The notes under the pieces: generated by a model | The model's database searches: none | Told to the model about the DNA's origin: nothing | The model's input: only the letters and a program-made list of their open reading frames with translations | In this document: in pieces, positions 38,972-49,776 of the stretch | Position numbering within the stretch: position 1 is the stretch's first letter | How the letters are laid out: every line of letters begins with the position of its first letter | Assembly (NCBI GenBank): GCA_001783515.1 | Contig: MFMN01000015.1 | Location: 1-58,583, forward strand | Length of the DNA stretch: 58,583 nucleotides | Direction of reading: 5' to 3' | Origin: Candidatus Kaiserbacteria bacterium RIFCSPLOWO2_12_FULL_50_10 | Lineage (GTDB): Bacteria > Patescibacteriota > Minisyncoccia > Phycocordibacterales > UBA918 | Program-made: the position numbers and the translations under genes

Positions 38972-39706
38972 ATGCAAACCATAGAAATACTCGAAGAGGA
39001 CGATAACGTTTTGGTTATCAATAAACCAAGCGGTCTTTTAGTGCATGAAGAAAAGCAAGGGAGTGCGGAACCAACAGTGGTAGCGTGGTTTCTTACTACC
39101 TATCCTGAAGCAAGAGGCGTTGGCGAACCGCAGTATGATATGCAAGGGAACCTCATTGAACGAAGCGGTGTAGTGCATCGCCTCGACAAAGGCACCTCTG
39201 GCGTACTTATCCTCGCAAAAACACAAGAGGCATACAATCACCTCAAGTCACAATTCCACGACCGTCTTGCACAGAAAGAATATCAAGCGATTGTCTATGG
39301 TTATTTCAAAGCAATTAAAGGACGTATCGAAGCAAAAATAGGTCGCGCAAAAAGCGACCCACGCAAACGCTCCGCATTTAAAAACGCCGTCGGCACCCTC
39401 CGTGACGCAGTGACTGACTGGGAACTTATCACCCAAAATGCACAGTTCGCTCACATTCGTCTCATGCCGAAAACAGGTCGCACTCATCAGCTTCGTGCGC
39501 ACCTCACCTTCCTCTCCCACCCCATAGTTGGCGACGGGCTCTATGCAACCAAAGAACAGTTCCGCAGTACACAAGAAGTATCACGAATACTTCTGCATGC
39601 GCACTCGCTCACGATAACCCTTCTTAATGGCGAACAGAAAAAATTCACCGCGCCACTCCCGGGCGACTTCACCCACTTTATCCACAAAAAAATAACCCCT
39701 GCGTAG
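38972..39706 (+). CDS. RluA/RluD family pseudouridine synthase
   Basis: NKPSGLLVH, VHRLDKGTSG, TGRTHQLR, HPIVGD. Confidence 0.94.
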   Translation: MQTIEILEEDDNVLVINKPSGLLVHEEKQGSAEPTVVAWFLTTYPEARGVGEPQYDMQGNLIERSGVVHRLDKGTSGVLILAKTQEAYNHLKSQFHDRLAQKEYQAIVYGYFKAIKGRIEAKIGRAKSDPRKRSAFKNAVGTLRDAVTDWELITQNAQFAHIRLMPKTGRTHQLRAHLTFLSHPIVGDGLYATKEQFRSTQEVSRILLHAHSLTITLLNGEQKKFTAPLPGDFTHFIHKKITPA

Positions 39707-39740
39707 TTGCAGGGGCTTTTGCGGCCGGAGCCGCAGTAGT

Positions 39741-40037
39741 TCATCCGAAGATGGACCAGAGGAACAAAAATGGGCTAAAGACAGTCCCGAGGAATGCGTC
39801 GGCGTGAAGCATTTTATCGGGCGGGGTATCTCCAGGGAGCACCATCGCGAAGAAGAAGAGCACGAGGTTCGCTACGATCCACACCGCGAAGACGCCCGGA
39901 AGAGCCCACCGCAGACGGATCATTGTTCCATCCTCGGTGAAGACACCGAGTTCCGTCGTCGCGCCGTAGCGAAATGCGTGATAGACGAGGGGCAGAGCAG
40001 CAATGAAAACAATCACCAAAAACGAAATTACGGACAT
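39741..40037 (-). CDS. Small membrane protein
   Basis: 2-3 TM; TTGACT/TATAAA promoter, TTGATCTTTT, GGAGG SD. Confidence 0.65.
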   Translation of the reverse strand: MSVISFLVIVFIAALPLVYHAFRYGATTELGVFTEDGTMIRLRWALPGVFAVWIVANLVLFFFAMVLPGDTPPDKMLHADAFLGTVFSPFLFLWSIFG

Positions 40038-40209
40038 GGAAGCCTCCAAAAAAGAAAAAGATCAAAACAAGGTGCTTAATTTATAGCACATATTTGTAAA
40101 TAAGTCAACATATCTCGCTCTGAACTGTTGACATTTTACATATGGCGTGCTAGTTTGTTTCCGCATCACAACCGTGACGCATTGATCTTTTACATCACTG
40201 GAGAAATTC

Positions 40210-40638
40210 ATGAAATTGATGAACGTTTGGGCAATCGCCCTCAGCGCTCTCATGGGCATGGGAACCGTCACTGTCGCTTCGGCGGCGGACGGTGCTCGCG
40301 CGTGGGGTTCCACGACGAAGCTCTCGCCGAAAAGCGAGGTCACTGACCTCGCCCTCAAGGAGCACATGCTCCGCGAGGAGCTGCTCGGGAGCCGCACCAC
40401 GATGAACCACTACGGCGACAACAACATGACGAGCAACACCGTGTGCGCTTCTGTGGACGCCTGCCAAACGCAGGATTCCTCGGTCACCAGCGTGAACGGT
40501 TCGACCTTCACCTCGGTGTCGTCGTCGGACCAGTCGAGTGTCGGTATCAATACCACCATCACGACCGGTCAAACCGACCAAACCGGGACCGCGCAAAGCA
40601 ATTCGCGCGTCTCGGGCAATCAGCTCATCATCAAATAA
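40210..40638 (+). CDS. Secreted S/T/N/Q-rich protein, HfaA/curlin-like
   Basis: Signal peptide, low-complexity beta-prone C-terminus, directly upstream of a CsgG-like gene. Confidence 0.55.
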   Translation: MKLMNVWAIALSALMGMGTVTVASAADGARAWGSTTKLSPKSEVTDLALKEHMLREELLGSRTTMNHYGDNNMTSNTVCASVDACQTQDSSVTSVNGSTFTSVSSSDQSSVGINTTITTGQTDQTGTAQSNSRVSGNQLIIK

Positions 40639-40650
40639 GGAAGAAATCTC

Positions 40651-41466
40651 ATGCGTGCAATCATCATTGCTCTCCTCATGTCCTTGTCCGGCTTTGCCTT
40701 TGCGGCGGAGCAGGATCAAGAAGCGGCCATTGAGTCGCACGTCGGCATCGCCGAAGCAACCTCGCCGTACGCGGACGCCATGTTCTGCGTGCGTGAGTTC
40801 ATGCAGCAAGCGCCGACTCGCATCGGCGTTGCCGACATTGCCGACAAAACCGGCAAAAACAACTACGCCGAGGGCGGCACCGGCACCATGATGACCCAAG
40901 GCGCAACCGACATGTTCTACACGTCGCTCGCGAACTTGGGCATTCGTGGCACCGAGGCAACGCCGCAATTCCGCGGCGCGATTGACTGGTACCAGCAGAA
41001 GGGTGCAAAGATTTCGATTGAACTCCCGACGTACATGATCATGGGTTCGCTCGACGTGCTCGACCTCTTGCCGGGAACGGCAAAAAGCTTTGGCATTCTC
41101 GGCCTCGGCGCCGATACCGTCGCCTACAAAGCCGTTGGCGGGATGGACGTTCGTCTCGTGAAGATGCTCGGCGAAGGCGGAGAAACCGGTCGTGTTCTCT
41201 ACAACGTGGCTCCGAAGAAGGAGTACCTCGCTGTCGAAGACCGCGCCGGCTTCGGTCGCTTCGTGGGCAAGGGGCACGGGCTCAGCATGTTCAGCTTCGA
41301 GCTGGCACGCGGCGCTCGCACCCCGATGCAGCTGACAACTCGCTGGCTCATCGACTACGCAGCGACGAGCCTTGTGCTCGACCTTGCCGAAGACAAGCTG
41401 GCGCACTCCGCAGAAACCAAGGCATACCTCACGGGTTGCCGCGGCAAACTGCGCAGTGCGTTGTGA
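40651..41466 (+). CDS. CsgG/HfaB family secretion channel protein
   Basis: TSPYADAMFC, IGVADIADKTGK, TQGATDM, YMIMGSL, GMDVRLV..TGRV, P-M-Q-L motifs. Confidence 0.75.
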   Translation: MRAIIIALLMSLSGFAFAAEQDQEAAIESHVGIAEATSPYADAMFCVREFMQQAPTRIGVADIADKTGKNNYAEGGTGTMMTQGATDMFYTSLANLGIRGTEATPQFRGAIDWYQQKGAKISIELPTYMIMGSLDVLDLLPGTAKSFGILGLGADTVAYKAVGGMDVRLVKMLGEGGETGRVLYNVAPKKEYLAVEDRAGFGRFVGKGHGLSMFSFELARGARTPMQLTTRWLIDYAATSLVLDLAEDKLAHSAETKAYLTGCRGKLRSAL

Positions 41467-41570
41467 CCTAGTCACAAAGCGTTTGACATTCCTTCCACCT
41501 CGTGCTATCTTCCAAATGCTTTCACGCCGTGAGAGCTTTGATCTTTTTCAATCCACAGGAGAAATTCCCC

Positions 41571-42236
41571 ATGCGCAAGCATTTCCTCGCCATCTCCCTC
41601 GCCATGTTCGCCGCCTCTGCCTTCGCCGCCCCCGGTGTCCACGTCGACGTTGACGTCACCACAGCCGACACGGTTATCCAGGGTGTCGGCGCCACTGCGA
41701 TGTCGACCGCCCACAGCGGCGACTTCAACGCGGTTGCGTCCGGCACCACGGGCAACGGCATTTCGAGCATCACGCTCGACCTGCCGCAAACCTTCAACGA
41801 CGACGTCGATGTCTCGGTCTACACCAACGGTCTGGTCCTCCAGGGCGTCGGTGCGCTGGCCATGAGCTGGTCTGGCGACGCGACGGCAACCGCCACGGCG
41901 CTGAACGCCGTGTCGACCATTGCCGGCTCCATGGGTGGCGGCGCCGACTCGATCGATGTGAACATCGCATCGGAGGCCCCGGTCATCCAGGGCGTCGGCG
42001 CCAGCGCGATCGTCATGAGCAACAACAGCGGCAACGATGCTGCGGTTGCCTCGGGCACCGCGGCGAACAGCCTCTCGTCCATCGACGTCTCGCAGGTCGG
42101 CTATGCTGACCATGTGGGCGTGCAGGTGGGCACGGGCTTCGTCCAGCAGGGCGTCGGCGCCTTCGCGATCTCGCAAGGCCCGGCCACCGCGACCGCCACG
42201 GCGCTGAATGCCGTCTCCGCCATCAACATCAACTGA
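41571..42236 (+). CDS. Secreted repeat protein, HfaD/functional-amyloid-like
   Basis: Signal peptide plus four ~50-aa repeats with QGVGA and A-x-N-x-(I/V/L)S motifs. Confidence 0.65.
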   Translation: MRKHFLAISLAMFAASAFAAPGVHVDVDVTTADTVIQGVGATAMSTAHSGDFNAVASGTTGNGISSITLDLPQTFNDDVDVSVYTNGLVLQGVGALAMSWSGDATATATALNAVSTIAGSMGGGADSIDVNIASEAPVIQGVGASAIVMSNNSGNDAAVASGTAANSLSSIDVSQVGYADHVGVQVGTGFVQQGVGAFAISQGPATATATALNAVSAININ

Positions 42237-42350
42237 TGGGGCGCGGGAGAGTCTCGGCTCTCCCTGCCATTGTTCTTTGCCTTCGGGCACTCTGTAAAAC
42301 CGCCTCCTTCGGGACGCGGTTTTTTCTTGGTTGTAAGGTATACTGTGCGT

Positions 42351-42770
42351 ATGCGGTACGAAGTGCCACAATTTATTGAAGTTGAACAGAAAGTTATTGG
42401 GCCATTCACGTGGAAGCAATTCGTGTATCTCGCGGGTGGCGCGGGCGCGCTCCTTATCACGTTTCTCCTCCTACCGTTTCTCCTTTTTGTGCTGCTTGGC
42501 GTGCCGGTTGCTGCGCTTGCGGTCTTGCTTGCGTTTCAAAAGGTAAACAACCGCCCGTTCGAGATACTCCTCGAGGCCGCGTTTAACTATATGGTGAAAG
42601 CACGCTTCTATCTTTGGAATATCGAAGAAGCACGCAAATACACCATTATTGGAAACGATACAAAGGCAGTAGAAAAAGAAGAAGCACCACAAGAATTGGC
42701 GCCCCGAAAAGAAGGCGGCATCTCAAGCCTTGAAACAAAACTCATGGAAGCTGAAACAGGCACCATCTAA
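42351..42770 (+). CDS. PrgI family (VirB3-like) protein
   Basis: MRYEVPQFIEVEQKVIGPFTWKQF, two TM, NNRPFE. Confidence 0.85.
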   Translation: MRYEVPQFIEVEQKVIGPFTWKQFVYLAGGAGALLITFLLLPFLLFVLLGVPVAALAVLLAFQKVNNRPFEILLEAAFNYMVKARFYLWNIEEARKYTIIGNDTKAVEKEEAPQELAPRKEGGISSLETKLMEAETGTI

Positions 42771-42791
42771 TCTAGATAATCTCTTTGTCTT

Positions 42792-43421
42792 ATGGCACAA
42801 AAAACAACACCAGCAACACAAACGTTTGTTCCGATTAAGGAAATCACTGATGATGTGGTGGTTCTTCAGAATGGCCAGCTCTGCGGTATTTTGCTCACCA
42901 CCTCGGTGAACCTTGCGCTGAAGTCAGGTGATGAGCAGAACGCGGTTATCCGCCAGTTCCAAGGTTTTTTAAACTCGCTTGATTTTTCGATACAAATTTA
43001 CGCACAGTCGCGTCGGTATGATGTGCGCCCGTATCTTTCGTACCTTCGAACACTTGAAAGTACGCAACACAATGACCTCATGCGTGTACAGCTTCGTGAG
43101 TATACGGAATTCATTAAGACATTCGCCGACGATGTCGCGATTATGAAGAAGAACTTCTTCGTTATCGTGCCCTATCACGCAGCGCCTATCTCGCAGGGAA
43201 AATCGTTTATTCCAACCACGTTCCAAAAGAATACAGACACTGAAGTACAGCAATCTTTCAATAAAAGCAAAGAACAGCTCAATCAACGTGTCACCGCAGT
43301 TGCCTCGGGCCTCCAAAGCATGGGTATTAAGTCGGCACGTCTCGGAAGTGCAGAGATTATCGAACTCTTCTACCATATTTACAATCCGAGCGAAAAAGGA
43401 AACGCACCACGTTCTGAATAA
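42792..43421 (+). CDS. T4SS-associated protein (VirB4/TraC N-terminal-like)
   Basis: TQTFVPIKEI, SVNLALKSGDEQ, FLNSLDFSIQI, FFVIVPY; follows prgI. Confidence 0.7.
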   Translation: MAQKTTPATQTFVPIKEITDDVVVLQNGQLCGILLTTSVNLALKSGDEQNAVIRQFQGFLNSLDFSIQIYAQSRRYDVRPYLSYLRTLESTQHNDLMRVQLREYTEFIKTFADDVAIMKKNFFVIVPYHAAPISQGKSFIPTTFQKNTDTEVQQSFNKSKEQLNQRVTAVASGLQSMGIKSARLGSAEIIELFYHIYNPSEKGNAPRSE

Positions 43422-45277: not shown

Positions 45278-45336
45278 GGCGTATGGTCGTGGTGTGCCTG
45301 TTTCGTGAATTCTGTAAGAGAGAGTATACTGATGCC

Positions 45337-46197
45337 ATGGATGGGAATACGCTTAAGATTGCGGCGGCTGGTTGTTTTGGGCTCATTATTGTCGCTACGT
45401 CCGTTTCGGCGCGCTTTGATGTGCATGGCTCTCTTGCGAATGTATTTACAACACTTGGCGGTAGCGAGCAAACAGAAATAGCAACAGGAGTTCCCGTGCC
45501 GACCACACAAGAATGGCGCTCATCGCTTTCAAAGTACACAACTATAAACCCTGATATCGCCAGCAGCACCGCTGCCATCGCGTCATCGAGTATGACGATG
45601 ACCGACACGTTCACGCGGTCAATGTTTGAAATGTATTTGCGAAATCGTGAAGACATAAACACTCCCGAAGCACGCGCGGCATTTGGCGAAGAATACGGGC
45701 GGGTGTTTCGGGCGTCACTCGAACCCATACAACACACAGAGAAAGATATCGTTGTACAAAATAGTGTAGCACTGTATGACTACGTCATTGCAGTAACGGA
45801 AGCACTAAGAACAACAAGCGAGCCACATGAGAACGAAATGATTATCTACGAAAGACTCCTTCGAAACACTGAAACAGCTGAAACAGACATGGCTACCATT
45901 CTGGCAACGGCAAAGGATTATGAAGATATTGAACAGAGACTCCTTGCTGTTGCAGTGCCAATACGCGCAGCAAAAATACACCTTGCCCTTCTAAATGCAA
46001 TAACAAGTGTACACACACACCTCTATAGTATGGTTTCATTCGAGCTTGATCCGTTCCGTGCCGCAGGAGGGTTCGTCGGCTACCGTAACGCAGCAACACA
46101 GTTAGGAATAGCGATTGCAACACTGCGGCTGCAAGTAAACATTGAAGGTGTCTCCTTTCCTGAAGGCTCGGCAGCAGCACTCCTTATGCAACTATAA
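45337..46197 (+). CDS. Secreted/anchored helical hypothetical protein
   Basis: N-terminal hydrophobic segment; VP..AAKIHLALLN, DPFRA. Confidence 0.7.
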   Translation: MDGNTLKIAAAGCFGLIIVATSVSARFDVHGSLANVFTTLGGSEQTEIATGVPVPTTQEWRSSLSKYTTINPDIASSTAAIASSSMTMTDTFTRSMFEMYLRNREDINTPEARAAFGEEYGRVFRASLEPIQHTEKDIVVQNSVALYDYVIAVTEALRTTSEPHENEMIIYERLLRNTETAETDMATILATAKDYEDIEQRLLAVAVPIRAAKIHLALLNAITSVHTHLYSMVSFELDPFRAAGGFVGYRNAATQLGIAIATLRLQVNIEGVSFPEGSAAALLMQL

Positions 46198-46203
46198 AAG
46201 ATT

Positions 46204-47541
46204 ATGATACGTTTTGGACAAAAAACACTCGCGACACTCCTTATCCTCAGTAGTTTTTTTGTGGGTGCGCAGCGTGCGAATGCAATAGATGCGGAAGACT
46301 TCGGAACATGGGCGTTGGTAGGTCTACAGAATGTTTTTACGTTGATTGGAAATGGGATTGAAGGTGCTACCGCATGGGCAACGGGAAGTCTTGTGGAAAA
46401 GGAGTGGATTGCAGACGGTGCATCAACTGTTCTGCTTGAAATGGCGCGAGCCACCTTGGTGAGAAGTATTCTTGATTGGGCGCGAACGGGTTTTAATGGC
46501 AGCCCTGCTTTTGTGCAGAATCTTAAAGGGTACTTTGAAGGAATAGGCGATGAAATCGCTGCTGAGTTTATTACAGGTGCTGGACTTGATGCACTTTGTT
46601 CGCCGTTTGCGTTAGATATCCGTGCAGCGCTTATCTTACAATTTGAGAAGGATCGTAAGAATGGCGAAGGTATCAACAAGTGTACGTTTACTGACATCAG
46701 CAAAAACATCAAAAATGCAGGGAAGAGTGGTAAAAAAGCATTTACCTCAGAAGATTTCTTTAAGGTATACTCAAGCCCAGTAAACACCCCGCAAGGAGCC
46801 TATGCTGACGCGCTTGGCGCGCTCAGTATTTCCATCACCAACAAGAAAGGAGAGCGTACAAAACTCCTCGATTTTGGCAAGGGCCTCCTCTCAAAAGAGG
46901 AATGTTTTGACCTTGGGCCAGATAAGCAGGTGTGTCAGATAATTACACCAGGGGATACGATTGCAAACTCTATCAATAAAACACTTGGTCTCGGACAAGA
47001 CGCCCTCGTAACGGCAGATGAAATAAACGAATTTGTTGGCGCGTTTATCGGACATGTTATGCAGAAAACGCTCCAAGAAGGTATTACGAAGATAGACCTC
47101 AATGCGACAGGTACGCCAGCAGGATTTGCTGCATCATTGCCAGAGTTTGATGGTGGGCAAACAGCCGCCGCACTTGACCAGATGATCGTAAAGCAAAAAG
47201 AGGCAATTGGAAAACTAGATGCACTCCTCAAAAAACTCGCAGCACAGTGTTCATCTGCACAAGATGAAAACCAGCGTATCGCGCAGTATAAACAGCGTGG
47301 TGTCTATGACATTTACCAAGACGTGCTTGCGAGAAAGAAAGGTGCGGAGGGAAAGCTCGGCGAAATGGAAGCCCTTAAAAAGAAGACAGAAGGAGCAACA
47401 GCAACGGAAACAATAGAAATCACGAACCAGGCGACAGCCATGACTTCGCAACAAAATGTCTATGTAAACAATCAGGATCTCGACAAACTTATCAAAAAAT
47501 ACGAAGCAGAAATCAATCAAAAGTGTCGTGTCGACAACTAA
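46204..47541 (+). CDS. Secreted hypothetical protein, probably T4SS-associated
   Basis: Signal peptide; WARTGFNGSPAFVQN, CSPF, IITPG, ADEINE; operonic with a VirB6-like gene. Confidence 0.65.
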   Translation: MIRFGQKTLATLLILSSFFVGAQRANAIDAEDFGTWALVGLQNVFTLIGNGIEGATAWATGSLVEKEWIADGASTVLLEMARATLVRSILDWARTGFNGSPAFVQNLKGYFEGIGDEIAAEFITGAGLDALCSPFALDIRAALILQFEKDRKNGEGINKCTFTDISKNIKNAGKSGKKAFTSEDFFKVYSSPVNTPQGAYADALGALSISITNKKGERTKLLDFGKGLLSKEECFDLGPDKQVCQIITPGDTIANSINKTLGLGQDALVTADEINEFVGAFIGHVMQKTLQEGITKIDLNATGTPAGFAASLPEFDGGQTAAALDQMIVKQKEAIGKLDALLKKLAAQCSSAQDENQRIAQYKQRGVYDIYQDVLARKKGAEGKLGEMEALKKKTEGATATETIEITNQATAMTSQQNVYVNNQDLDKLIKKYEAEINQKCRVDN

Positions 47542-47550
47542 GAGAACACC

Positions 47551-49776
47551 ATGAACAAAAGAACAATCCATATACTTATCTTCGCACTCATCACGCTCGC
47601 TACTCTTCCAGCGCCTGTTTTTGCGATTGATATTGGTGGTGAGGTTGGCAACTTGCTCGCACAACTTGGCGCGCTCTTCTTTGGGTTCTTTGCACTCATT
47701 TTTCAGAAGTCCATCACCTTTCTCGTATTTGAGATTGGACAGAACATGACCGGGCAACTCGGGTTTGTGGTAAACACCACGTGGGCTATCGTGCGCGACC
47801 TCTGCAACCTCGTGTTTATTTTCCTCTTCCTTTACGTCGGCGTGCGACTCGTGCTTACGGTAGAAACGGTCGACCGTGCACGAACGGTGCTGGTGAAAAT
47901 TATTGTTGCGGCACTCCTTGTCAATTTCAGCCTCTTCTTCGCGAAGGCAATTATCGATATCGCGAACGTTGCGGCAGTTGCGGTGTATGGGCTCTTCCAA
48001 GACGCTTCTGGCGAGGCAGATGTAGCTGCTGCGGTTGCGGCATCGCTCGGGCTTCACACCTGGTTTGGCGCTACCGCGCAGCAGCTTCCTCTCATGAGCT
48101 TTACCAAAGGCGTCATGATGATGATTTTCTTCCTCGTTGCCGCACTTTCATTCCTTACCGCGTCAGTCGTACTCTTTAAACGATACGTGATACTGCTCTT
48201 CGGTATGATAGTGTCGCCGCTTGTGCTCATCTTCAAGCTTTTGCCAACGAAGGACTTTTCCTTTATGTCGAGTGTGGTGAAAAAAGTCGAGGGTCTGTAT
48301 TCGCAGTTTATATCGAGTGCGTTTTTCCCGGCGGTATTTCTCTTCCTTATCTACATTTCGCTCCAGATTATTAAATCATACGCGGGTGAGCCGCAGTTCG
48401 CGAAGTCAATTCTTGGTGAAGACGAAAATGCCGTCGGTACGCTTCTTGTGTACTTTATCGGTATTGCGCTTCTCCTCGCCTCGATTCGTGCAGCAAGTAT
48501 GGTTTCCGACACCGCCGCAAACATGTCAATGAGTTTTGCTCGTAAGGCGGGTGGTGCGGCAACGCTTGGTGTGGGTGCGTGGGCAGGAAGAAATCTCGGA
48601 GGACGTCTCGGGAAAATCGCGCAAGAAGGACTACAAAACGGCAAAGTGCCTACGACACGTGTTGGGCGCCTCTTTAAGACCACAGCGATATCTGGCGCGG
48701 AGAAGATGCGTACCGGCAGCTACGATGTTCGCGGCACAAAAGCTTACGCTGGTGCCGCAAAAGCAGCAGGCGTACCCGTTGGTGGCGGCTGGGGTGTAAC
48801 CGACAAGGGGTACGAAGACGTCTATACAGAGAAGGTTAAGAAGGAAAAAGAACTCGCCGAAAAGCAAGCGGCAATCCTCGCGGGCGTTTCGAAAACAGAA
48901 CAAGAAGAAAAAGAAAAGAAGGCAAAGGAAGAGTTCGACAAGACGAAGGAAGCGCTCAGAGACGCATCTTCCTATCGAAAGATTATTGAAGAGAGAAACA
49001 AGGCAGCCGGCACGAGCGGTACTCCTGAAGAGGCAAAAGCGCGCGCAACTGAGCTTGCCGACGCAGACAAGGCAGTTAGTGAAGCACTCCTCAAACAAAG
49101 GAAAGCAAAAGAGGAACACGAAAAAGTTAAGAACGAATACAAAGAAAAGGTTGAAAATGTGCTCGTGGGTACGAAGGAGGCGCGTCAGGCAATCCATCTC
49201 GAGGATACCGCTGCGAAGCATGTCGCTGCAGAGGAGGCGCGCAAGGCGCTCCTTGCACAGCGCGAGGGCACCGTTGCACGTATGGCACAAGCATCACCCG
49301 AAGAACGCGCAGAGCTCCAGAAAAAGGTTGATGAGCTCGAAAAGAAGATAACCGAACAAGAAACAACCATCGAATCCGCAAAGGTGGCAGGCGAAAAGAT
49401 GGTTACTGCAGAGCGTGCCAAGAAAGCCGAAGAAGCGACACTTCAAGTAAAAGCAACCCAAACAGCGCTCACCGGAGCTAAAGAAGGAGGAGAAGTACAG
49501 GCGAAGCTTCAGGCAGAACTTGCGTCACTTCAGGAAAAAGCAGCGCAAGCACAGCAACACGTTGCTGCACCAGCAGGACGAGATACTGATGTCGCGCAGC
49601 GCATGCGTGACGCCGCAAAGGCAGCTCGCAATATGCGGGCAAAGCAGGGAGGTATTGCTGGTTCACAAGAAACCGAAGGTGCTGTGGGCAGAGCGCTCGG
49701 AGGAGGGGCACCATTCTCATCCGCAGGACGCACCGCGGGTACAGAACTTCGAGAAAAGCATAAGCCAAAATACTAA
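47551..49776 (+). CDS. VirB6/TrbL-like polytopic membrane protein with coiled-coil tail
   Basis: WAIVRDLCN, AALLVNFSLFFAKAIID, RYVILLFGMIVSPL, FFPAVFLFL. Confidence 0.65.
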   Translation: MNKRTIHILIFALITLATLPAPVFAIDIGGEVGNLLAQLGALFFGFFALIFQKSITFLVFEIGQNMTGQLGFVVNTTWAIVRDLCNLVFIFLFLYVGVRLVLTVETVDRARTVLVKIIVAALLVNFSLFFAKAIIDIANVAAVAVYGLFQDASGEADVAAAVAASLGLHTWFGATAQQLPLMSFTKGVMMMIFFLVAALSFLTASVVLFKRYVILLFGMIVSPLVLIFKLLPTKDFSFMSSVVKKVEGLYSQFISSAFFPAVFLFLIYISLQIIKSYAGEPQFAKSILGEDENAVGTLLVYFIGIALLLASIRAASMVSDTAANMSMSFARKAGGAATLGVGAWAGRNLGGRLGKIAQEGLQNGKVPTTRVGRLFKTTAISGAEKMRTGSYDVRGTKAYAGAAKAAGVPVGGGWGVTDKGYEDVYTEKVKKEKELAEKQAAILAGVSKTEQEEKEKKAKEEFDKTKEALRDASSYRKIIEERNKAAGTSGTPEEAKARATELADADKAVSEALLKQRKAKEEHEKVKNEYKEKVENVLVGTKEARQAIHLEDTAAKHVAAEEARKALLAQREGTVARMAQASPEERAELQKKVDELEKKITEQETTIESAKVAGEKMVTAERAKKAEEATLQVKATQTALTGAKEGGEVQAKLQAELASLQEKAAQAQQHVAAPAGRDTDVAQRMRDAAKAARNMRAKQGGIAGSQETEGAVGRALGGGAPFSSAGRTAGTELREKHKPKY

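Follow-up and report, generated by a model that had tools for sequence, protein, structure and literature searches.

How does a protein of the CsgG/HfaB family come to be encoded, between two secreted proteins, in a bacterium in which no outer membrane can be detected? The question is raised by three adjacent genes on contig C15 (MFMN01000015.1; 58,583 nucleotides, analyzed over its whole length and referred to here as the window) from the draft genome of Candidatus Kaiserbacteria bacterium RIFCSPLOWO2_12_FULL_50_10, which comprises 819,113 bases in 28 contigs and is estimated to be 95.09% complete and 0.18% contaminated. The genes, designated g1, g2, and g3, are as follows.

40210 to 40638, + strand: g1, small secreted protein of 142 amino acids (aa)
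40651 to 41466, + strand: g2, CsgG-fold protein of the HfaB-like branch, 271 aa
41571 to 42236, + strand: g3, secreted repeat protein of 221 aa counted from the ATG (the open frame begins at a GTG at 41502)

The original prediction, made from the sequence of the window, described an hfaABD/curli-like amyloid secretion locus in a member of the candidate phyla radiation (CPR) presumed to have no outer membrane. We conclude that the trio is real, is under selection, resembles HfaABD and curli systems, and occurs in a few ultrasmall groundwater bacteria without a detectable outer membrane. Our preferred reading, held with slightly more confidence than doubt, is that it forms a self-contained HfaABD/curli-type cell-surface fiber or anchor module native to a few CPR lineages of the class Paceibacteria.

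A CsgG-fold protein between two secreted proteins

The product of g2 matched the Pfam CsgG model (PF03783) over residues 144 to 247 (E value of 7.9e-9; 35.6 bits against a cutoff of 20.8), and a six-frame search of the genome with the same model also exceeded the cutoff (21 bits). The NCBIfam HfaB model (NF037935) matched residues 11 to 102 only (E value of 3.9e-11), with a score of 42.7 bits versus an equivalog cutoff of 300. On these matches, g2 is HfaB-like and no HfaB equivalog. When 1.84 billion representatives were searched exhaustively with HMMER, 118 relatives were returned at an E value of ≤1e-3 and 8 at ≤1e-30, the best non-self matches sharing 41 to 42% identity, and a close relative is labeled as a Candidatus Kaiserbacteria protein at NCBI. 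We aligned 60 proteins (alignment A1: the g2 protein of the window, 2 matches from a separate search, and 57 of the 118 HMMER relatives, with fragments and most fused proteins longer than ~360 aa omitted). The HfaB model matched 57 of these 60 proteins (best E value of 3.5e-51), and the CsgG model matched 6. A profile built from A1 aligned with nearly all of solved CsgG (E value of 1.5e-22); the single g2 sequence gave only chance matches to PDB sequences.

The structural comparisons gave the same picture. An AlphaFold2 (AF2) model of g2 generated with A1 (pLDDT of 90.7; pTM of 0.81) contains two long beta-hairpins, at residues 128 to 171 (strands 128 to 149 and 152 to 171) and 189 to 223 (strands 189 to 205 and 212 to 223), and both hairpins are full length throughout the clade. 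When this model was compared with the PDB using Foldseek, the top rows were membrane-form CsgG structures (E values of 2.2e-14 to 1.4e-12), including 6l7a_A (E value of 2.2e-14; TM scores of 0.60 and 0.65) and 4q79 (TM score of 0.80 by target). The model was closer to membrane-form CsgG (TM scores of 0.58 to 0.65) than to the pre-pore structure 4uv2 (0.46 and 0.52). We therefore identify g2 as a CsgG-fold protein of the HfaB-like branch. Among the aligned homologues, Cys46 is invariant and Cys263 is nearly invariant. A pattern search detected a lipobox-like Cys in 9 of 10 g2 proteins from CPR bacteria, the protein of the window being the exception. A complex prediction for g2 (residues 19 to 271) with g1 (residues 26 to 142) scored 0.00 and weighs neither way. 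One 531-aa relative of g2 (P0011; 36% identity), which lacks a lipobox Cys, carries a fused polysaccharide deacetylase domain (PF01522; E value of 2.8e-13); the fusion hints that this clade of HfaB-like proteins may be tied to surface polysaccharide, as the holdfast anchor is.

Sec-type signal peptides ending in AxA were read from the sequences of all three proteins: the signal of g1 ends in VASA and is followed by ADG, that of g2 ends in GFAFA and is followed by AEQ, with no Cys, and that of g3 ends in SAFA and is followed by APG. The original description of g2 as a CsgG/HfaB-like protein with a signal peptidase I-type signal and no lipobox Cys was thus borne out by the Pfam match, the fold, and the signal end. 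Together with the conserved Cys residues of g2 (Cys46 and Cys263) and g1 (Cys79 and Cys85), the three signal peptides are signs of a probable extracytoplasmic location.

Mature g1 has the composition that had been claimed for it, that of a secreted S/T/N/Q-rich protein (S, 16%; T, 15%; N, 7%; Q, 6%). Its N-terminal part is conserved and contains an invariant W32, its C-terminal half is S/T/N/Q rich, and the pair C79 and C85 (CxxxxxC) is invariant in an alignment of eight homologues (A3). Searches of Pfam, NCBIfam, and PDB sequences, the last with the A3 profile, yielded no match for g1. The product of g3 is rich in Ala, Gly, Val, Ser, and Thr and consists largely of four repeats of 41 to 54 aa (residues 25 to 78, 79 to 127, 128 to 180, and 181 to 221). 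The four repeats of about 50 aa and the motifs quoted in the original prediction are exact in the sequence: QGVGA is present four times (residues 37, 91, 140, and 193; contexts VIQGVGA, VLQGVGA, VIQGVGA, and VQQGVGA) and ATATATALNAVS twice (residues 104 and 205). The repeat consensus is NVGVxTxNVxQxAxAxAxSGxAxAxATAANAVVSI, in which a Gln and an Asn are conserved without exception among the 22 repeats of seven homologues (alignment A4; three to four repeats per protein). A search of PDB sequences with the A4 profile returned a sole row, a fimbrial protein (E value of 0.012). Profile comparison revealed no similarity between the g1 and g3 families, and no second copy of either gene was found in the genome. 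The g3 repeat motif differs between species of the genus, with QGVGA and ATATATALNAVS in the window and ASAVNAAGVVSV in the sister species (L005, 7256 to 7906).

Conservation, selection, and descent of the cassette

The original prediction had raised the prospect of chimeric junctions. Logan contigs from two runs (X1 and X4) span positions 39400 to 43000 in one piece, and one from a third (X5) spans 39400 to 42961, with 0 differences and at depths of 35 to 57; these three runs are possibly the source samples. Across the left junction, a piece (39930 to 40184) was also present in a run of low depth that belongs to a different study. The same insertion is present between the same neighbors in a sister species (G001). 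With both junctions bridged by contigs of three runs and synteny preserved in the sister species, the join is not chimeric.

A pattern-based scan covering 185,579 species, with a single genome per species, matched 16 stretches, of which 6 were confirmed as loci: one in the sister species, three in Candidatus Paceibacterota records, and two in records labeled "bacterium." A metagenome scan matched 116 stretches, and 4 loci were confirmed, including one (L013) on a 262-kb contig that carries the proteins of the sister species. The order and strand of g1-g2-g3 were intact at all 11 loci recovered (the window, the sister species, 5 further genome loci, and 4 metagenome loci), although the g3 protein assigned by position at L009 is only 20% identical to that of the window. 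The carrier genomes are 0.5 to 0.8 Mb in size (five carriers measured) and range in GC content from 0.40 to 0.64. The cassette thus recurs in other small, Paceibacteria-type genomes, and it does so under purifying selection.

Ratios of nonsynonymous to synonymous substitution (dN/dS) were estimated by the Nei-Gojobori method for pairs with a dS of 0.27 to 0.69. They were 0.15 to 0.22 for g1, 0.09 to 0.13 for g2, and 0.14 to 0.24 for g3, compared with 0.10 for a flanking HisS-like control; one further g3 pair (L010/L016) gave a dN/dS of 0.25 at a saturated dS of 1.35. All three genes are under purifying selection. The window and the sister species share 50, 63, and 30% identity in g1, g2, and g3, respectively, versus 80 and 86% in the flanking genes. 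The cassette, and g3 most of all, evolves faster than its surroundings, and the divergence of g3 is very fast for a surface protein.

A FastTree phylogeny was built from 114 rows (10 CPR g2 proteins, the Pacificitalea protein described below, and 103 HMMER relatives no shorter than 230 aa, each trimmed to the first 330 residues, with two duplicates and shorter fragments omitted). All 10 CPR g2 sequences fell within one 20-row clade with a local support of 99. The clade's other 10 rows are the relatives P0003, P0007, P0008, P0010, P0011, P0013, P0014, P0015, P0017, and P0029.

The composition of the block is unusual. At positions 40128 to 42330, its GC content is 0.607 versus a genome mean of 0.504 (standard deviation, 0.034; 2.2-kb windows), and it is the most GC-rich 2.2-kb window of the whole genome. 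The GC content at third codon positions (GC3) is 0.80, 0.75, and 0.87 for g1, g2, and g3, respectively, versus 0.543 for 399 open reading frames (ORFs) of at least 250 aa (standard deviation, 0.077). These values, with the ORFs themselves, agree with the earlier account of three co-oriented, GC-rich genes. High GC as proof of a recent transfer was considered and dropped, since at most loci the cassette has a higher GC3 than its flanks, irrespective of the genome GC content; the excess would fit an old transfer among CPR bacteria or a codon bias and no fresh arrival. Six genomes from other genera had no upstream match to the neighbors in the window, and therefore no preinsertion site could be defined. 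Neither a tRNA gene between positions 30 and 50 kb of the window nor flanking direct repeats suggestive of an integration site were found.

Expression signals and neighboring genes

Sequence features that may govern transcription and translation of the cassette, and the genes that follow it, are listed below.

40128 to 40209, + strand: promoter-like site and 5' leader of g1, with TTGACA at 40128 to 40133, a 17-nucleotide (nt) spacer, TG at 40148 to 40149, and TAGTTT at 40151 to 40156
~40163 to 40180, + strand: hairpin in the rest of the g1 leader, then a T-rich run and GGAG at 40200 to 40203, read from the sequence
41483 to 41570, + strand: promoter-like site and 5' leader of g3, with TTGACA at 41483 to 41488, a 17-nt spacer, and TG followed by TATCTT at 41506 to 41511
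41518 to 41536, + strand: hairpin in the rest of the g3 leader, identified by the scan as terminator-like, then a T run and GGAG ahead of the ATG
42240 to 42268 and 42296 to 42323, + strand: two hairpins 3' of the g3 stop, within 42240 to 42330, the second continuing into a U tract
42351 to 42770, downstream of g3: PrgI-family gene (PF12666; E value of 3.4e-9)
42792 to 43421, after prgI: gene of 209 aa with matches to VirB4 (N-terminal part) and to the TrsD/TraD family

The promoter scan matched the g3 site at 10 of 12 positions and listed it as the sole one of the two; the g1 site went unlisted, its -10 hexamer being too weak. The two leaders, of ~80 nt each, are alike over most of their length (repeat families D7 and D8). 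In the sister species, the corresponding leaders (L005, 9287 to 9385 and 7904 to 8010, both on the - strand) have the same layout (alignment A5). In contrast to g1 and g3, g2 starts 12 nt past the g1 stop and has a Shine-Dalgarno sequence only, with no promoter-like leader. The original prediction had assigned each gene its own promoter and Shine-Dalgarno leader; this holds for g1 and g3 but not for g2. The consensus for the leader hairpin is weak (five pairs, two of them with changes on both sides, in four sequences only). The hairpin and its T run were noted as a possible attenuator or binding site that could coregulate both units. At the 3' end of the cassette, the predicted RNA fold of positions 42234 to 42335 has an energy of -40.8 kcal/mol (z score of -2.71 versus shuffles). 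These hairpins were not listed as terminators in a simple scan, and the second one, with its U tract, is likely the end of the g3 transcript.

In this genus, the cassette is flanked by a pseudouridine synthase gene and prgI, and the flanking genes in the window are housekeeping genes. Elsewhere, the flanks are genes for an RNA recognition motif protein, a methyltransferase-like gene, and a HisS-like gene (L007, L008, and L010) or an EF-G-like gene (L009); these identities come from translations read by eye and were Pfam checked for the window only. The adjacency to prgI given in the original prediction therefore stands for the window and its genus and is confined to them, the neighbors in other carriers being unrelated. 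Relatives of the 209-aa VirB4-N/TrsD-like gene occur as separate frames of ~204 to 277 aa in 35 of 37 genomes from the family. This partner of prgI is thus a core feature of the family and no remnant of a mobile type IV secretion system. Farther along the window, at 45283 to 49776, three large co-oriented ORFs (304, 445, and 741 aa) lie downstream of the RNase Y gene and have no Pfam match at an E value of ≤1e-5.

Known systems, envelope, and rival explanations

In the mechanism that we propose, g1, g2, and g3 would be exported by Sec, as read from their signal peptides, and would be expressed as two transcription units, g1-g2 and g3, from near-identical promoter and leader sequences. The g2 protein would assemble into a CsgG-type oligomeric beta-barrel ring, and the Cys-paired, S/T-rich g1 protein and the repeat protein g3 would be its clients. 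Released from the ring or held at it, g1 and g3 could stack into a beta-rich, curli- or Hfa-like surface polymer that would fasten the bacterium to a partner cell, to a surface, or to polysaccharide; attachment is its most likely role. Ring formation, the client relationship, polymerization, and adhesion are all inferred by analogy with curli and the Caulobacter anchor.

The closest parallel is the HfaA-HfaB-HfaD system of Caulobacter crescentus. The gene order is alike, with a small secreted protein, a CsgG-like protein, and a larger secreted protein (bearing repeats in the case of g3), and g2 and nearly all of its aligned relatives match the HfaB model. Two reports (PMC6707917; bioRxiv 10.1101/2022.07.20.500906) describe HfaA and HfaD as forming SDS-resistant, amyloid-like multimers in an HfaB-dependent manner. 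Weak leads to these two proteins came from the ESM Atlas, in which the neighbors of g3 include a cluster with 70% HfaD-family members (PF27277; score of 0.84) and those of g1 include an HfaA cluster (PF27294) at rank 20 (score of 0.79); both scores are below the trusted level and serve as leads only. The differences are that g2 scores far below the HfaB equivalog cutoff over a short N-terminal stretch, that the HfaA and HfaD models match nothing, that the g2 protein of the window has no lipobox, and that the carriers are small CPR genomes without outer membrane markers found, not Caulobacterales.

With the curli system of Escherichia coli, the cassette shares the CsgG fold and profile-level homology of g2, Sec-exported clients, and the invariant Gln and Asn of the g3 repeats, which recall those of curli repeats. 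A review describes the curli repeat as an Asn/Gln-flanked strand-arc-strand unit of ~22 aa in CsgA. The g3 repeat is ~40 to 50 aa long and has no match to the Curlin_rpt model, the cassette contains no CsgE-, CsgF-, or CsgC-like genes, and g2 is only ~20% identical to solved CsgG. Moreover, g1 and g3 are mutually unrelated, unlike CsgA and CsgB, which are homologous to each other. Pseudomonas Fap is comparable in that FapC is a secreted, repeat-built functional amyloid, and FapC was the top but nonsignificant row for the g3 model (E value of 0.61; TM score of 0.10). The channel of the Fap system, FapF, is not known to belong to the CsgG family, which sets that system apart from the cassette.

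A trio of the same architecture surrounds a CsgG/HfaB-family gene on plasmid pDY25-D of Pacificitalea manganoxidans (NZ_CP021408.1; L037, 4289 to 7404). There, an S/T-rich protein with a signal peptide (starting ...RSWSGS...) is encoded upstream and an acidic repeat protein with a signal peptide downstream. The central protein differs from g2 in its length (508 aa, with a C-terminal extension; 24.7% identity), and the host is a diderm alphaproteobacterium. This locus is a weak lead. Its flanking proteins are unannotated, match neither the HfaA nor the HfaD model, and gave nonsignificant scores with the g1 and g3 family profiles (E values of 0.021 and 0.2).

Envelope markers were sought by six-frame family searches after a loose first pass, and all marker families were detected in the expected control genomes; for draft genomes, the results are given as "not found" and never as "absent." Omp85 was not found in this genome (G000) or in carriers G459 to G463 (0 of 5). 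LpxC, secretin, and OEP/TolC were each found in none of five genomes (G000, G459, G460, G462, and G463). The presumption that no outer membrane is present, for which BamA and lipopolysaccharide machinery were the proposed check, thus agrees with what was found in the carriers searched. A review (PMC13067283) counts CsgG among a small number of barrel proteins whose assembly does not need BamA, and therefore a missing BamA alone would be no bar to a g2 barrel.

Several results weigh against the HfaABD/curli-type reading. No site is known for a barrel of the CsgG type in cells that lack an outer membrane, and in a cell with a single membrane, Sec alone would put g1 and g3 outside, so that a channel seems unnecessary. 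Lgt and LspA were found in none of the same five genomes, despite the lipobox-like Cys in most CPR homologues. The AF2 model of g3 is all-beta with four like units and is of low confidence (pLDDT of 53.9); Foldseek returned no match to it at an E value of ≤1e-3, the rows for FapC and CsgA (E value of 5.2) having TM scores of ~0.1. No Pfam or NCBIfam match to g3 was found beyond a chance-level Pfam row (E value of 0.49). The HfaA (NF037934) and HfaD (NF037936) models, which matched the Caulobacter controls, found nothing in the genome at an E value of ≤10, and no member of A3 or A4 matched them. The cassette is also very rare: g2 was found in only 1 of 60 relatives searched (the sister species) and in none of 400 further genomes sampled from the class or 400 sampled from the phylum, the samples partly overlapping. 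The HfaA and HfaD equivalog models are narrow and miss the flanking proteins of the alphaproteobacterial CsgG/HfaB locus as well. On present sequence comparisons, g1 and g3 appear to represent new families and are not detectable as members of the HfaA, HfaD, or curlin families. The hfaABD/curli-like label is supported by the fold of g2 and the gene order and not by family matches of g1 and g3, and the beta-solenoid or amyloid structure that the original prediction had suggested for g3 was not supported by a confident model or a significant fold match. As a separate observation, a lipobox-like Cys where no Lgt or LspA was found may mean that the Cys has another purpose, that lipidation follows an unseen route, or that divergent enzymes were missed.

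How g2 might work at such an envelope is the point on which the alternatives differ. It could form a soluble or wall-associated ring rather than a pore, like the nonlipidated pre-pore form of CsgG that has been solved (4uv2), and chaperone, nucleate, or anchor a g1/g3 polymer at the wall or S-layer. The missing lipobox Cys in the window, the carriers in which neither Lgt and LspA nor outer membrane markers were found, and the suggestion, in a preprint (bioRxiv 10.1101/2022.07.20.500906), that Caulobacter HfaB does more than translocate HfaA and HfaD are all consistent with this explanation. Its standing is lowered by the greater similarity of the g2 model to the membrane form, by the two hairpins being full length across the clade, and by the lipobox-like Cys in 9 of 10 CPR homologues, and we regard it as rather unlikely. 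A different possibility is that the cassette is aimed at a host, with g2 acting as a BamA-independent, self-inserting barrel in the envelope of a partner and g1 and g3 tethering the cells. The carriers have genomes of a size (0.5 to 0.8 Mb) typical of host-dependent CPR bacteria, and the fast evolution of g3, at 30% identity between sister species against 80 to 86% for the flanks, would fit a partner-facing protein; the insertion of CsgG without BamA, as described in the review cited above (PMC13067283), is a further point in its favor. A lipobox-like Cys in most homologues suggests tethering to the producer instead, and the cassette is too rare to be a device with which CPR bacteria in general meet their hosts. 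That it acts on the envelope of a host is pure conjecture, and we consider this explanation improbable. A broader form of the idea, which strikes us as doubtful, is that a barrel of the CsgG family has become able to function in cells that have no outer membrane of their own, either as a pore inserted in a partner envelope with a g1/g3 tether or as the sign of an unseen outer lipid layer in some Paceibacteria.

The remaining explanations deny the cassette a role in these bacteria. A functionless passenger acquired horizontally from an outer-membrane bacterium would account for GC and GC3 values that greatly exceed the genome background (and, at most loci, those of the flanks), for the patchy and rare distribution, and for lipobox-like signals in genomes where Lgt and LspA were not found. 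It is made unlikely, and in our judgment highly so, by dN/dS values of 0.09 to 0.25, like those of the housekeeping control; the three genes are moreover intact at every locus, and the grouping of all CPR g2 proteins in one well-supported clade, across genomes of widely different GC content, points to long residence in such genomes. Contamination, or a chimeric join with DNA from a diderm, might be suspected from the way in which the GC-rich block stands out from its surroundings. The contigs of three runs across both junctions, the fourth run across the left one, and the same insertion with the same neighbors in the sister species, seen also on the 262-kb metagenome contig, make this very unlikely, to the point that we give it almost no credence; the low contamination estimate and the housekeeping genes on the flanks agree. 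A fiber or anchor module native to these lineages is thus the reading that we retain.

Searches combining CsgG with Patescibacteria, candidate phyla radiation, or monoderm returned, within the literature searched, no account of such a system in CPR bacteria or in any others with a single membrane. CsgG and HfaB are usually viewed as outer membrane lipoprotein channels, and here one is kept under selection with two private secreted partners. The cassette forces a choice among an outer layer that has gone unrecognized, a CsgG fold that works at a single-membrane envelope, and a barrel made for the membrane of another cell. Each of these options bears on how host-dependent, ultrasmall bacteria attach to and exchange with their partners and on the reach of the curli/holdfast secretion principle, and the g1 and g3 families are new candidates for functional amyloid-like fibers.

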